Assembly (NCBI GenBank): GCA_951406725.2
Contig: OX597839.1
Span: 20,584,001-20,648,000 of the forward strand
Source: Octopus vulgaris
Taxonomy: Eukaryota
DNA: 64,000 bases
Reading direction: 5' to 3'
In this document: positions 14,299 through 58,915 of the stretch, piece by piece
How the letters are laid out: the number at the start of each line of letters is the position of its first letter
How positions within the stretch are numbered: the stretch's first letter is position 1
Notes under the pieces: model-generated
Database searches by the model: none
What the model was told of the DNA's origin: nothing
What the model saw: the letters and a program-made list of their open reading frames with translations, nothing else
Made by a program: the position numbers and the translations under genes

Positions 14299-14437
14299 AC
14301 ACACACACTCACACATACACACACACACACACATACACACATAGAAATAAAAATATATAACATGTATGTATGTATATATATATATATATATGTGTGTGTG
14401 TATGTGTGGAGGCACATGGCACATAAGATTTGTTTAT

Positions 14438-17400
14438 GTGGATTCGCGTGGCTTCGTGGTTAGGGTGTCAGTATCATGATCGTAAGATTGTGGTTTCGAT
14501 TCCTGGACCGGGCGACGTGTTGTGTTCTTGAGCAAACCACTTCATTTCATGTTGCTCCATTCCACTCAGCTAATGGTTAGGATGTTGCACTCGTGACTTC
14601 TAGATTGTGGTTTCAATTCCTGGACTGGGCAGTGTATTGTGTTCTTGAGCAAAACCCTTCATTTCATGTTGCTCAACTCCACTCAGCTAATGGTTAGGAT
14701 GTTGCACTCGTGACTTCTAGATTGTGGTTTCAATTCCTGGACTGGGCAGTGCATTGTGTTCTTGAGCAAAACCCTTCATTTCATGTTGCTCAACTCCACT
14801 CAGCTAATGGTTAGGATGTTGCACTCATGACTTCTAGATTGTGGTTTCGATTCCTGGACTGGGCAATGCATTGCATTCTTGAGCAAAACCCTTCATTTCA
14901 TGTTGCTCCAGTCCACTCAGCTAATGGTTAGGATGTTGCACTCATGACTTCTAGATTGTGGTTTCAATTCCTGGACTGGGCAGTGCATTGTGTTCTTTTG
15001 TAAACCACTTCATTTCATGTTGCTCCAGTCCACTCAGCTAATGGTTAGGATGTTGCACTCATGACTTCTAGATTGTGGTTTCAATTCCTGGACTGGGCAG
15101 TGCATTGTGTTCTTTTGTAAACCACTTCATTTCATGTTGCTCCAGTCCACTCAGCTAATGGTTAGGATGTTGCACTCGTGACTTCTAGATTGTGGTTTCA
15201 ATTCCTGGACTGGGCAGTGCATTGTGTTCTTTTGTAAACCACTTCATTTCATGTTGCTCCACTCCACTCAGCTAATGGTTAGGATGTTGCACTCGTGACT
15301 TCTAGATTGTGGTTTCAACTCCTGGACTGGGCAGTGCATTGTGTTCTTGAGCAAACCACTTCATTTCATGTTGCTCCACTCCACTCAGCTAATGGTTAGG
15401 ATGTTGCACTCATGACTTCTAGATTGTGGTTTCAATTCCTGGACTGGGCAGTGCATTGTGTTCTTTTGTAAACCACTTCATTTCATGTTGCTCCAGTCCA
15501 CTCAGCTAATGGTTAGGATGTTGCACTCGTGACTTCTAGATTGTGGTTTCAATTCCTGGACTGGGCAGTGCATTGTGTTCTTGAGCAAAACGCTTCATTT
15601 CATGTTGCTCCACTCCACTCAGCTAAGGGTTAGGATGTTGCACTCGTGACTTCTAGATTGTGGTTTCAATTCCTGGACTGGGCAGTGCATTGTGTTCTTG
15701 AGCAAAACCCTTCATTTCATGTTGCTCCACTCCACTCAGCTAAGGGTTAGGATGCTGCACTCGTGACTTCTAGATTGTGGTTTCAATTCCTGGACTGGGC
15801 AGTGCATTGTTCTCTTGAGCAAAACCCTTCATTTCATGTTGCTCAACTCCACTCAGCTAATGGTTAGGATGTTGCACTCATGACTTCTAGATTGTGGTTT
15901 CAATTCCTGGACTGGGCAGTGCATTGTGTTCTTGAGCAAAACCCTTCATTTCATGTTGCTCCACTCCACTCAGCTAATGGTTAGGATGTTGCACTCGTGA
16001 CTTCTAGATTGTGGTTTCAATTCCTGGACTGGGCAGTGCATTGTGTTCTTGAGCAAAACCCTTCATTTCATGTTGCTCAACTCCACTCAGCTAATGGTTA
16101 GGATGTTGCACTCATGACTTCTAGATTGTGGTTTCAATTCCTGGACTGGGCAGTGCATTGTGTTCTTGAGCAAAACCACTTCATTTCATGTTGCTCCAGT
16201 CCACTCAGCTAATGGTTAGGATGTTGCACTCGTGACTTCTAGATTGTGGTTTCAATTCCTGGACTGGGCAGTGCATTGTGTTCTTGAGCAAAACCCTTCA
16301 TTTCATGTTGCTCCACTCCACTCAGCTAATGGTTAGGATGTTGCACTCGTGACTTCTAGATTGTGGTTTCAATTCCTGGACTGGGCAGTGCATTGTGTTC
16401 TTGAGCAAAACCCTTCATTTCATGTTGCTCAACTCCACTCAGCTAATGGTTAGGATGTTGCACTCATGACTTCTAGATTGTGTTTTCAATTCCTGGACTG
16501 GGCAGTGCATTGTGTTCTTGAGCAAGACACTTCATTTCATGTTGCTCCAGTCCACTCAGCTAATGGTTAGGATGTTGCACTCGTGACTTCTAGATTGTGG
16601 TTTCAATTCCTGGACTGGGCAGTGCATTGTGTTCTTGAGCAAAACACTTCATTTCATGTTGCTCCACTCCACTCAGCTAATGGTTAGGATGTTGCACTCA
16701 TGACTTCTAGATTGTGGTTTCAATTCCTGGACTGGGCAGTGCATTGTGTTCTTGAGCAAAACACTTCATTTCATGTTGCTCCACTCCACTCAGCTAATGG
16801 TTAGGATGTTGCACTCATGACTTCTAGATTGTGGTTTCAATTCCTGGACTGGGCAGTGCATTGTGTTCTTGAGCAAGACACTTCATTTCATGTTGCTCCA
16901 GTCCACTCAGCTAATGGTTAGGATGTTGCACTCGTGACTTCTAGATTGTGGTTTCAACTCCTGGACTGGGCAGTGCATTGTGTTCTTGAGCAAAACACTT
17001 CATTTCATGTTGCTCCACTCCACTCAGCTAATGGTTAGGATGTTGCACTCATGACTTCTAGATTGTGGTTTCAATTCCTGGACTGGGCAGTGCATTGTGT
17101 TCTTGAGCAAAACACTTCATTTCATGTTGCTCCACTCCACTCAGCTAATGGTTAGGATGTTGCACTCGTGACTTCTAGATTGTGGTTTCAACTCCTGGAC
17201 TGGGCAGTGCATTGTGTTCTTGAGCAAAACACTTCATTTCATGTTGCTCCACTCCACTCAGCTAATGGTTAGGATGTTGCACTCATGACTTCTAGATTGT
17301 GGTTTCAATTCCTGGACTGGGCAGTGCATTGTGTTCTTGAGCAAAACACTTCATTTCATGTTGCTCCAGTCCACTCAGCTAATGGTTAGGATGTTGCACT

Positions 17401-17741
17401 CATGACTTCTAGATTGTGGTTTCAATTCCTGGACTGGGCAGTGCATTGTGTTCTTGAGCAAGACACTTCATTTCATGTTGCTCCACTCCACTCAGCTAAT
17501 GGTTAGGATGTTGCACTCATGACTTCTAGATTGTGGTTTCGATTCCTGGACCGGGCGACGCGTTGTGTTCTTGAGCAAACCACTTCATTTCACGTTGCTC
17601 CAGTCCACTCAGCTGGCAAAAATGAGTAACGCTGCTGTGGACTGGCGTCCCGTCCAGCTGGGGAACCCATACGCCATGGAAACCGGGAAACCGGGCACAT
17701 GAGCCTGGCTAGGCTTTGAAAGGGCGCATTTATATATTTTA
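14438..17741 (+). mobile_element. SINE family C insertion containing an internal tandem array; 13-bp TSD
   Basis: aagatttgtttat at 14425-14437 and 17742-17754. The 5' head and the 3' tail (ggcaaaaatgagtaacg...gaaagggcgcatttat) match the monomer at 24651-24902. Confidence 0.9.
14569..17610 (+). repeat. SINE-head-derived satellite, 117-bp unit x26
   Basis: Unit gctaatggttaggatgttgcactc(g/a)tgacttctagattgtggtttcaattcctggactgggcagtgcattgtgttcttgagcaaaac(c/a)cttcatttcatgttgctccactccactca; starts at 14569, 14686, 14803 ... 17495. Confidence 0.97.
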
Positions 17742-17804
17742 AAGATTTGTTTATAATGGTCAGAATGTTCGTTATACCTTAGCTCAGTCCTTCCATCAAA
17801 TCGA

Positions 17805-17972
17805 TATTTCTTGTACAGGTGCACGGCGTGCCACACATCAACACCTCAGGTGTCAAAGTGATCGCAAAGCAACGTGATATGAAGAATTTTGCTCAAACAC
17901 ATGATGCATTGACCTGTCCGGGAATCGAAACCGTGATTTCGCGATCGTGAGTGCAACACACTGACCACTAAT
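17805..17972 (-). mobile_element. older SINE family C-related copy
   Basis: Reverse strand tagtggtcagtgtgttgcactcacgatcgcgaaatcacggtttcgattcccgg...tttgagcaaaattcttcat. Confidence 0.7.
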
Positions 17973-18300
17973 CTCAACCTGAAATTATAGAGAAGCGTTT
18001 TGAAACCCAACTCAATTCACCCGTTGATTTTTCTTACCTAAAACCCTAACCACAAAGCCATTTGCGCTCTTTGTAGTTCAATGAAGGACTGTGACTTGAA
18101 ATGTTCGACAGTTGAAATCTTCGCAACAATTGGCTGTTGGATTGGACTTATCGATGAAATTCTTCAATGAACTTTTATCAATAGCTTCTCGTTGTAAATA
18201 TCTTCAGTTTTCTTTAGTTTAAATGATATTTAATTCTTACCGAGAAAGACGCACCAGCCCTTTAAAATATTCTGATGGCATCCGTAGAATATACATACAC

Positions 18301-22502: not shown

Positions 22503-22965
22503 CAAGGCTGTGGAGCCGAAGCAAAAAGCTTCGACTCTGACTCCTCTACTATTGGTACCTCCGACTCTTCTACTATAGTACCTCTGACTCCTCTACTATT
22601 GGTACCTCCGACTCTTCTACTATAGTACCTCTGACTCCTCTTCTATTGGTACCTCCGACTCTTCTACTATAGTACCTCTGACTCCTCTACTATTGGTACC
22701 TCCGACTCATCTACTATAGTACCTCTGACTCCTCTACTATTGGTACCTCCGACTCTTCTACTATAGTACCTCTGACTCCTCTTTATGTAATTGGTTGTGG
22801 TCTACATATCTCATAAAGTATATGCATACGCTTGTACTTTGTATAGGCCTATTTGTTAGAATTGGCTTATATTAAAGAATAAAGACATTGTGAGTCGGAG
22901 TCGGTATAGTTTTACCGACACCCCTTAATTGTTTCCGACTCCACGACTCCGACTACTCAACTCTG
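22503..22965. mobile_element. hAT-type MITE with internal 45-bp minisatellite
   Basis: Degenerate TIRs caaggctgtggagccg and cgactccgactactcaactctg (CAGGGCTGTGGAGTCGGAGTCG type); 8-bp flanks attttcac (22495-22502) and attatcac (22966-22973); internal ctctgactcctctactattggtacctccgactcttctactatagtac about 5.5 times. Confidence 0.75.
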
Positions 22966-24650: not shown

Positions 24651-24902
24651 GTGGAGGCGCGTGGTTTAGTGGTTAGGGTGTCAGCACCATGATCGTAAGA
24701 TTGTGGATTCGATTCCTGGACCGGGCGACGCGTTGTGTTCTTAAGCAAAACACTTCATTTCACGTTACTTCAGTCCACTCAGCTGGCAAAAATGAGTAAC
24801 GCTGCGATGGACTGGCGTCTCGTCCAGCTGGGGAACACATAAGCCATAGAAACCGGGAAACCGGGCCCATGAGCCTGGCTAGGCTTTGAAAGGGCGCATT
24901 TA
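24651..24902 (+). mobile_element. SINE family C monomer (tRNA-derived head)
   Basis: gtggaggcgcgtggtttagtggttagg (A-box-like) ... ggattcgattcc (B-box-like) ... gttgtgttcttaagcaaaacac ... gaaagggcgcattta. Confidence 0.9.
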
Positions 24903-46730: not shown

Positions 46731-46745
46731 ATATTTATATATATA

Positions 46746-47348
46746 CCTATTTCTTTACTACCCACAAGGGGCTAAACACAGAGAGGACAAACAAGGACAG
46801 ACAAACGGATTAAGTCGATTGTATCGACCCCATTGCGTAACTGGTACTTATTTAATCGACCCCGAAAGGATGAAAGGCAAAGTCGATCTCGGCGGAAGTT
46901 GAATTCAGAACGTAGCGGCAGACGAAATACCTATTTCTTTATTACCCACAAGGGGCTAAACACAGAGGGGACAAACAAGGACAGACATAGGTATTAAGTC
47001 GAATACATCAACTCCAGTGCGTAACTGGTACTTAATTTATCGACCCCGAAAGGATGAAAGGCAAAGTCGATCTCGGCGGAATTTGAACTCAGAACGTATA
47101 GGCAGACGAAATACCTATTTCTTTATTACCCTCAAGGGGCTAAACACAGAGGGGACAAACAAGGACAGACATAGGTATTAAGTCGATTACATCGAATCCA
47201 GTGCGTAACTGGTACTTAATTTATCGACCCCGAAAGGATGAAAGGCAAAGTCGATCTCGGCGGAATTTGAACTCAGAACGTATCGGCAGACGAAATACCG
47301 CTAAGCATTTCGTCCTGCGCGCTAACGATTCTGCCAGCTCGCCGCCTT
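46746..47348 (-). mobile_element. SINE family A tandem trimer
   Basis: One head (~47345) and three bodies/tails; junction gacgaaatacctatttcttt at ~46921 and ~47105. Confidence 0.92.
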
Positions 47349-49334: not shown

Positions 49335-50095
49335 TTCTTTTCTACTCTAGGCACAAGGCCCGAAATTTTGGGGAAGCGGGGCAGTCGATTAGATCGACAC
49401 CAGTACGCAACTGGTACTTAATTTGTTGACCCTGAAAGGATGAAAGTAAAGTCGACTTTGGCGGAATTTGAACTCAGAACGTAACGGCAGACGAAATACC
49501 TATTTCTTTATTACCCACAAGGGGCTAAACACAGAGGGGACAAACAAGGACAGACATAGGTATTAAGTCGATTACATCGACCCCCAGTGCGTAAATGGTA
49601 CTTAATTTATCGACCCCGAAAGGATGAAAGGCAAAGTCGACCTCGGCGGAATTTGAACTCACAACGTAACGCAGACGAAATACCTATTTCTTTATTACCC
49701 ACAAGGGGCTAAACACAGAGGGTACAAACAAGGACAGACATAGGTATTAAGTCGATTACATCGACCCCAGTGCGTAACTGGTACTTAATTTATCGACCCC
49801 GAAAGGATGAAAGGCAAAGTCGACCTCGGCGGAATTTGAACTCACAACGTAACGCAGACGAAATACCTATTTCTTTATTACCCACAAGGGGCTAAACACA
49901 GAGGGGACAAACAAGGACAGACATAGGTATTAAGTCGATTACATCAACCCCAGTGCGTAACTGGTACTTAATTTATCGACCCCGAAAGGATGAAAGGCAA
50001 AGTCGACCTCGGCGGAATTTGAACTCAGAACGTAATGGCAGACGAAATACTGCTAAGCATTTCGCCCGGCGTGCTATCGTTTCTGCCAGCTCGCC
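49335..50095 (-). mobile_element. SINE family A tandem tetramer (3 A tails + terminal A' tail)
   Basis: One head (~50093), four bodies, identical junctions at ~49490, ~49675 and ~49857; the last body ends in the A' tail (ttctactctaggcacaaggcccgaaatttt). Confidence 0.92.
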
Positions 50096-58599: not shown

Positions 58600-58777
58600 C
58601 GAAATTACAAAGTTCTTCAACAGAACCCCTGTTCCTGGCAGGGTTACTCATTTACAGCTGAATGGGCTGGAGTAACCTGAAATGAAATGTTTTGCTGAAG
58701 AACGCAATGCCCGGTCCGGGAACTGAAATCACGTTCTTGCGATCGTCAGTGCAACACCCTAACCCCTAGGCCACGCG
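58600..58777 (-). mobile_element. old SINE family C
   Basis: gttactcatttacagctga...gcccggtccgggaa...gtgcaacaccctaacc. Confidence 0.7.
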
Positions 58778-58915
58778 ACTTCGCTTACGATGTTCGATTT
58801 GCGAATGTCTTTCTCCCGAAACGGGAAATTTCTTGGGTTCTTCATCAAGGCACTTCATTTTGCGTAGCTCCAATATGCTCTGAAGAAAATGAGTTCCAAC
58901 CGAATGCGGGTGAAC

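Follow-up and report, generated by a model that had tools for sequence, protein, structure and literature searches.

The SINE insertion at positions 14425-17754 of the window (the whole 64,000-nucleotide stretch analysed here, C26:20,584,001-20,648,000 of a 2.8-Gb assembly) carries 27 head copies joined by 26 junctions with a 117-bp period, and the satellite that they form sits inside or beside SINE copies at 24 places on one chromosome. The array is built of a satellite unit derived from a SINE, with a single fixed junction, and it was probably copied into resident SINEs by homology-guided template switching or interlocus gene conversion.

Anatomy of the element in the window

The element is bounded by the 13-mer AAGATTTGTTTAT, which occurs exactly twice in the window and agrees with the 13-bp target site duplication (TSD) originally described; its length exceeds the 99th percentile (10 bp) of a null of 550 mismatched flank pairings. 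TRF places the array at 14485-17614 (period 117, 26.7 copies, 96% matches). The original prediction had counted 26 heads of 117 bp, and while this period and number hold for the junctions, the head copies are 27 and the purely internal units 25 (24 of 117 bp and one of 118 bp). The element is composed as follows.

14425..14437, + strand: left TSD copy of the host SINE insertion, 13 bp (one of only two window copies; null 99th percentile 10 bp)
14438..14571, + strand: 5' leader and first head of the host SINE, young CpG-rich subfamily (89.6% identity to the monomer at 24651-24784, grouping with C1 monomers, painting)
14572..14574, + strand: first of the 26 head-to-head junctions, CTCAGCT-AAT-GGTTAGG
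14575..17500, + strand: 25 internal units, probably imported
17501..17614, + strand: chimeric last head, unit-type up to 17527 and host-type from 17541
17615..17741, + strand: body and 3' tail of the host SINE, young subfamily (91.5% mean identity to 9 C1 control monomers)
17742..17754, + strand: right TSD copy, the second of the two window copies

The first head, the last two-thirds of the last head and the tail belong to the host SINE, where the original prediction had named the first head and the last half-unit, and the predicted return to host sequence near 17540 falls within the interval given above. The first head is host-type at least to 14537, so that entry into the imported sequence lies between this position and the first junction, which fuses the end of a head to the middle of an A-box-like motif. 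The inner units, as had also been noticed, are different: they are about 81% identical to the host SINE, and the first head departs from their consensus at 20 of 117 sites. The last head departs from it at 12 sites, but three of these already belong to the beginning of the tail. On the ~260-bp monomer the unit covers positions 17-134, again at ~81% identity, and is thus a part of the SINE and shorter than it. Within the window array the units are 96.5% alike, and they are 92-97% identical to units of other C26 loci. The motif TTGCACT is present, as stated before, in two older copies (17868-17971 and 58656-58778). With an identity to the unit of only 74-75%, and without its TGACTTCTAGA signature, these copies are not its source.

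The host SINE, a few hundred bases long and ending in a simple AT-rich tail, is dispersed and present in high copy number. A 31-nt tail motif of its subfamily has 1,324 exact matches in the genome, at least 100 of them on C1, and TSD-like repeats surround most of the nine C1 control monomers (out of 12) that could be parsed. It presumably resembles a named family such as the CORE-type octopus OR2. The name SINE-C used in the original prediction is given by no tool. As to the tRNA-like nature of the head, A- and B-box-like motifs are present as judged against the general consensus, and no tRNA match was returned by ARAGORN on the window or by Rfam on the array and one young monomer, for which Rfam gave only miRNA and snoRNA matches far below their gathering scores. 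The final part of the tail is AT-rich and includes a T4 run at 17737. T4 runs are also found in 5 of the 25 inner units (at 14996, 15113, 15230, 15464 and 16483), where they could stop RNA polymerase III, and four of these five units belong to a variant that also occurs in the array at 21.08 Mb. No reading frame of at least 150 aa in the window overlaps the array. The unit folds no better than shuffled sequences (z +1.47), and no stable hairpin is therefore invoked as a trigger of breaks.

Distribution of the junction and diversity of its hosts

A 28-nt junction pattern, searched with up to 3 mismatches in the 2.8-Gb genome, gives 174 matches (135 forward, 39 reverse), and all of them belong to 24 loci on C26, as do the exact matches (116/116). 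A loose form of the pattern yields seven matches on C1-C25, none of which is the junction of the 117-bp unit, and 52 of the 53 matches beyond those listed were traced to C26. A query of two units also matched many separate places on C26. The internal signature of the unit has no exact match on C1-C25 among the matches listed (100 of 154), which speaks against the dispersed SINE subfamily that had been proposed as donor. The 24 loci span 3.5-29.5 Mb of this 41-Mb contig, and 19 of them lie within 8 Mb (13-21 Mb), a clustering equalled in none of 20,000 uniform draws under a null that ignores local SINE density. The cluster is thus not subtelomeric, a position that for the reptile satellites discussed below is a reported tendency and not part of their definition. 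Neither is the junction dispersed over chromosomes as a multimeric SINE would be, the host tail motif serving as the dispersed control. The number of junctions per locus ranges from 1 to 47; at least four middle units are found at 6 of the 24 loci, and the same unit recurs among several of them, with 25 middle units in the window array.

The junction core of 60 nt is conserved among the 24 loci (mean identity 95.7%, minimum 90%) and units are 90-98% alike between loci, versus a mean of only 70.8% (55-95%) for the tails behind the last head, in which none of 136 pairs reaches 95%. This tail comparison covers 17 of the 24 loci and leaves out L032, L040, L041, L044, L048, L049 and L053, where the tail is absent, broken up, rearranged or of a different kind. 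Units are thus more alike than SINE copies, a contrast that is weak for the young subfamily, the monomer heads of which are 91% alike. This subfamily provides the hosts of the window locus, L046, L047 and L050, with tails 90-93% alike. Only 10 of the 24 loci have a detectable SINE leader, and only two have clear TSDs, the window locus (13 bp) and L046 (15 bp), with different sequences; candidates of 7-9 bp at L045, L039 and L042 remain below the null threshold. A single 5' end, a single tail and a TSD for each copy are thus not what these loci present. Of the mobile satellite foreseen in the original prediction, which expected the same junction at many loci with individual TSDs, the shared junction and the mobility hold, the former on C26 only, whereas the TSD would mark the older insertion of the host SINE and not the arrival of the satellite.

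In a tree of 58 heads, in which units were subsampled to at most four per locus, the first head of the window array groups with young C1 monomers (support 97/97), and its inner units fall together with those of other loci and with the chimeric last head (support 96/95). The array is thus, as anticipated from the window alone, not a simple duplicate of its host head.

The flanks are unrelated between loci except in the pair L033/L034. In this pair the end of the array, the tail and ~270 bp of flank are present twice, at L033:3940-4350 and at the corresponding end of L034, as inverted copies separated by 45 kb; the shared flank resembles, by eye, an exon on the opposite strand, and L033 starts with ~270 bp of inverted units. 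A 3' transduction was rejected for this pair, as neither a poly-A nor a TSD was seen where the shared sequence ends. Segmental duplication was rejected as the means of spread for the other loci, where flank matches of 70-90%, and one of 97% over 69 bp, are read as interspersed repeats.

Switch points and the route of spread

When the first and last heads are painted against the unit, the points of entry and exit are seen to vary by locus. The window locus, L040 and L050 have host-specific bases both before and after the insert. At L040 six such bases are common to the first and last heads; at L050 ~30-40 bp around the junction are foreign, and one private base is present on both sides. In the window, the host-type sequence that starts by 17541 is a second copy of part of the first head, down to an uncommon C (14537 and 17580) that most copies of the family lack; most of the contigs compared read A at 17580. 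This is the only doubled host-specific base of the window locus, and the same C is found in L031 and in five inner units. Any young monomer could have supplied the remaining host-type bases, as an inner unit of L032 shows. Entry and exit may fall at one point in L046 and L047. Fragmented and inverted pieces of the unit are found along the edges of L032, L033 and L041 and look like the product of repeated template switching. L032 is without a SINE tail, and L034 and L041 are without a host head; some insertions thus needed no whole SINE. At single-junction loci the foreign signature begins directly behind the junction.

Sequence variants are also common to distant arrays. A four-base variant occurs in four window units and in two units of L031, 0.5 Mb away, and another variant base in five window units and in seven units of L034, 4 Mb away. 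In general, rare multi-site variants of the unit are common to arrays 0.3-4 Mb apart, a sharing that assembly polishing could inflate. Within L032, one of the inner units contains a tract of young-monomer type that resembles the last head of the window array. At L043 (C26:13.164 Mb), unit sequence stands directly behind the SINE leader, with CCTAG where the junction has GCTAA; this locus is a candidate founder, and near-complete conversion explains it equally well.

Starting from the observed distribution, diversity of hosts, switch points, doubling of host sequence and shared variants, we infer the repair pathway, the order of events and the direction of each transfer, and the sequence mosaics, and indirectly the diversity of hosts, suggest that the host came first and the array later. 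In the proposed model, a single head duplication in one old, mutated SINE copy of C26 would have made the junction. A broken or stalled strand ending in a SINE head would then invade an array on its own chromosome, copy at least one junction and go back to its own head. Return upstream of the point of entry would double 40-70 bp of host sequence; at the window locus, entry would have occurred after 14537 and exit at 17528-17541. A one-ended template switch of this kind explains the doubled host sequence, and two-ended repair may apply to the loci where entry equals exit. The tandem seeded in this way would lengthen by unequal exchange or slippage while short tracts are still traded with neighbouring arrays. 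Every invaded copy would become a new donor, and physical proximity would limit the spread to one chromosome. The host TSD would then be a relic of the time when the host monomer itself was inserted by ordinary retrotransposition. The same junction is present at 24 loci, and among the routes named in the original prediction, gene conversion or template switching fits best as the means of import.

Other routes have to be weighed against this one, the main rival being extrachromosomal circles. Circles of n x 117 bp, shed by arrays and returned to homologous heads through one crossover, usually not far from where they arose, would account for the fact that most insertions keep the register of the host head and for the single point of entry and exit possible at L046 and L047, and satellites on circles are known in Drosophila (PMC7403614) and Tribolium (PMC11610590). 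A single crossover doubles no host sequence, yet the window locus, L040 and L050 all show such doubling, which would require later allelic conversion; nor do free circles give an obvious reason for the presence of 174 of 174 junctions on one chromosome, and the spread described for Tribolium is extensively interchromosomal (PMC11610590). These points leave circles as an unlikely route, although one with some weight. Considerably less probable is the retrotransposition of a whole multimeric SINE transcript, with its own TSD for each copy, which the original prediction had also considered. The window element and L046 each have a leader, a tail and their own TSD, four hosts have the young tail type in common, and 20 of the 25 inner units are without a T4 run, so that read-through would be possible. 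However, the four young tails are no closer to one another than the window tail is to the C1 monomers, whereas the junction cores are far closer; the remaining hosts have other tail types, no copies exist off C26 although the monomer is dispersed, and L033/L034, the sole pair with a common 3' flank, ends its shared stretch without the marks of retrotransposition noted above. A multimer predicts one tail and dispersal, both of which fail, and this reading is thus largely refuted; the diversity of tails, the unrelated flanks and the locus-specific points of entry and exit all indicate that the arrays were not retrotransposed as multimers.

It is equally hard to credit that the heads were duplicated separately in each SINE, at a microhomology favoured for this, with units homogenised later by conversion. 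Local amplification does occur, as the units of a C2 array (L083) are close to their own first head, but the exact junction is absent from C1-C25 even with the loose pattern, though hosts are plentiful there, and the single-junction loci are already foreign behind the junction. An assembly or polishing artefact as the origin of the array or of the mosaic ends is the most remote of these explanations: the 3.1-kb length of the array does rest on the assembly, and polishing can mix variants of similar arrays, but the junction is bridged by contigs from two other species labels (X5 record 18 and X7 record 26), locus-specific variants distinguish the arrays and the right border (17712-18047) is identical in run X1.

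Junction families in other samples and chromosomes, and known systems

The 3' end of the host and its flank are present, in short contigs, in samples X1, X2 and X4 (organism A) and X5 (organism B). Contigs that bridge the junction with more than 31 letters on each side come from X5 and from X7 (organism C), and X1 contigs cross it with shorter overhangs; no such contigs are listed for X10 (organism D). The depth of the junction relative to that of heads in general, a crude measure and not a copy number, is 2.5%, 7.0%, 0.9% and 0.02%, the last value being that of organism D. The near-absence of the junction in organism D suggests that it originated after the split of this organism. Relatives with more, fewer and almost no junctions thus exist in which empty sites could be sought.

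The pattern recurs in at least one independent family, on a different chromosome. This family has a 119-bp head unit, and 13 of its 15 exact junction matches lie within 5.3 Mb (C9:74.2-79.5 Mb), the other two being on C4 and C19. Its loci (L054-L059 and L091-L097) keep the whole A-box-like motif in unlike hosts, with tails that average 65.8% identity (11 tails, two of them off C9, on C15 and C19); L092 has a 13-bp TSD. L100 (C5), considered as an off-cluster junction, has no head behind it, and L098 (C4) and L093 do not match the fuzzy pattern. The 30 matches of a general junction pattern comprise 12 in the C9:74-79 Mb cluster, six in one C2 array, four at C9:34-43 Mb, two at C7:23-26 Mb and six that are scattered. 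A third junction type, with a 123-bp period, forms small regional clusters on several chromosomes, through either local spread or recurrent origin, and occurs at L084, L085 and L064 (C7:23-26 Mb), L086-L089 (C9:34-43 Mb) and L061 and L090 (C22). This type is found on C2, C7, C9 and C22, and confinement to one chromosome is thus not absolute for every junction family. Its C2 array, L083 (C2:31,918,500-31,921,300), holds at 513-2755 17 heads of 123 bp inside an 11-bp TSD, within one SINE insertion, and looks mostly like the result of local growth. Minisatellites derived from Alu and B1 also reportedly arise locally. The bases behind the L083 junction match the C7 dimer L064, which hints at a rare jump between chromosomes.

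Tentatively, and with somewhat less than even confidence, the junction can be regarded as a selfish, enzyme-free "homing" sequence that uses SINE heads as landing pads, enters them through repair, makes every invaded SINE both a further donor and the seed of an array, and spreads infection-like through one chromosome territory, with regional strains on C26, at C9:74-79 Mb and probably at C7:23-26 Mb and C9:34-43 Mb. If true, this would be a general and observable route from a dispersed SINE to a chromosome-specific satellite, and the regional strains would form a natural map of the reach of ectopic repair in the germ line.

By its structure, the window satellite resembles the SINE-derived satellites of reptiles, and by its mode of spread it resembles the Rsp-like satellite of Drosophila. 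The squamate satellites sSat1-3 (Vassetzky et al., 2023; PMC10702118) are likewise tandems of units shorter than the SINE (70-290 nt), sometimes of its head, with one unit present at many loci and units more alike than the parent SINEs. In contrast to C26, where many loci are flanked by the host SINE on both sides, the sSat form with both SINE termini is called "uncommon" and mostly one terminus is present, and sSat arrays are subtelomeric on many chromosomes, not clustered in the middle of one contig (PMC10702118). The consulted portions of that article report no confinement to one chromosome, no TSD-flanked hosts of different subfamilies and no mechanism of invasion, and are silent on how one unit comes to occupy many SINE loci; its Supplementary Fig. 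8B may bear on the foreignness of inner units to their host (PMC10702118).

The Rsp-like satellite invades 1.688 clusters on the X chromosome of Drosophila simulans and D. mauritiana (Sproul et al., 2020; PMC7403614). As here, a rare repeat with a shared junction has spread along one chromosome into an abundant resident repeat; a 32-bp host duplication is present at four clusters, arrays also move with their flank, and the choice between interlocus conversion and circles, both proposed, is left open (PMC7403614). In Drosophila the two partners are satellites of unrelated sequence that meet at microhomologies (PMC7403614), whereas on C26 the invader is a homologous part of the host SINE family that enters by ~80-90% homology at variable points. 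The landing sites also differ, being dispersed copies of a retrotransposon that keep the host tail, and sometimes the TSD, as a record. Satellites of Tribolium, for their part, spread between chromosomes (PMC11610590).

Tandem growth inside SINE copies at many loci is also known from Alu- and B1-derived minisatellites (Jurka and Gentles, 2006; Bois et al., 1998), in which the units are of 6-8 bp (PMC6947457) instead of 117 bp and foreign to the host. Dimeric and tandem SINEs such as Alu and the Dip/B1 multimers also repeat heads in one element, and are full-length tandems or dimers retrotransposed as such (PMC10702118); here, tails, distribution and switch points speak against such joint retrotransposition. 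Among octopus elements, OR2 is described as a CORE-type SINE (PMC4758252). Titles and opening lines of abstracts in the open-access literature gave no account of a SINE-head satellite invading dispersed SINEs on one chromosome.

How satellites arrive at new loci, whether by circles, interlocus conversion or transposition, is considered an open question (PMC7403614; PMC11610590). On C26 each host SINE is marked by its sequence, which makes the points of entry and exit readable for all 24 events and the question testable, and the proposed route would show how satellite DNA colonises a chromosome. The exchange of sequence over megabases among the SINEs of one chromosome would in turn affect the dating of repeats and their assignment to subfamilies.

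Further repeats are found in the window itself. In a second SINE-like family a 184-bp body is repeated three to four times behind a single head (1449-1975, 46743-47299 and ~49383-50050); further single or partial copies are present in the window, and its copies are 90-97% alike. A 47-bp tandem repeat with 5.3 copies, 98% alike, is located at 22535-22782.
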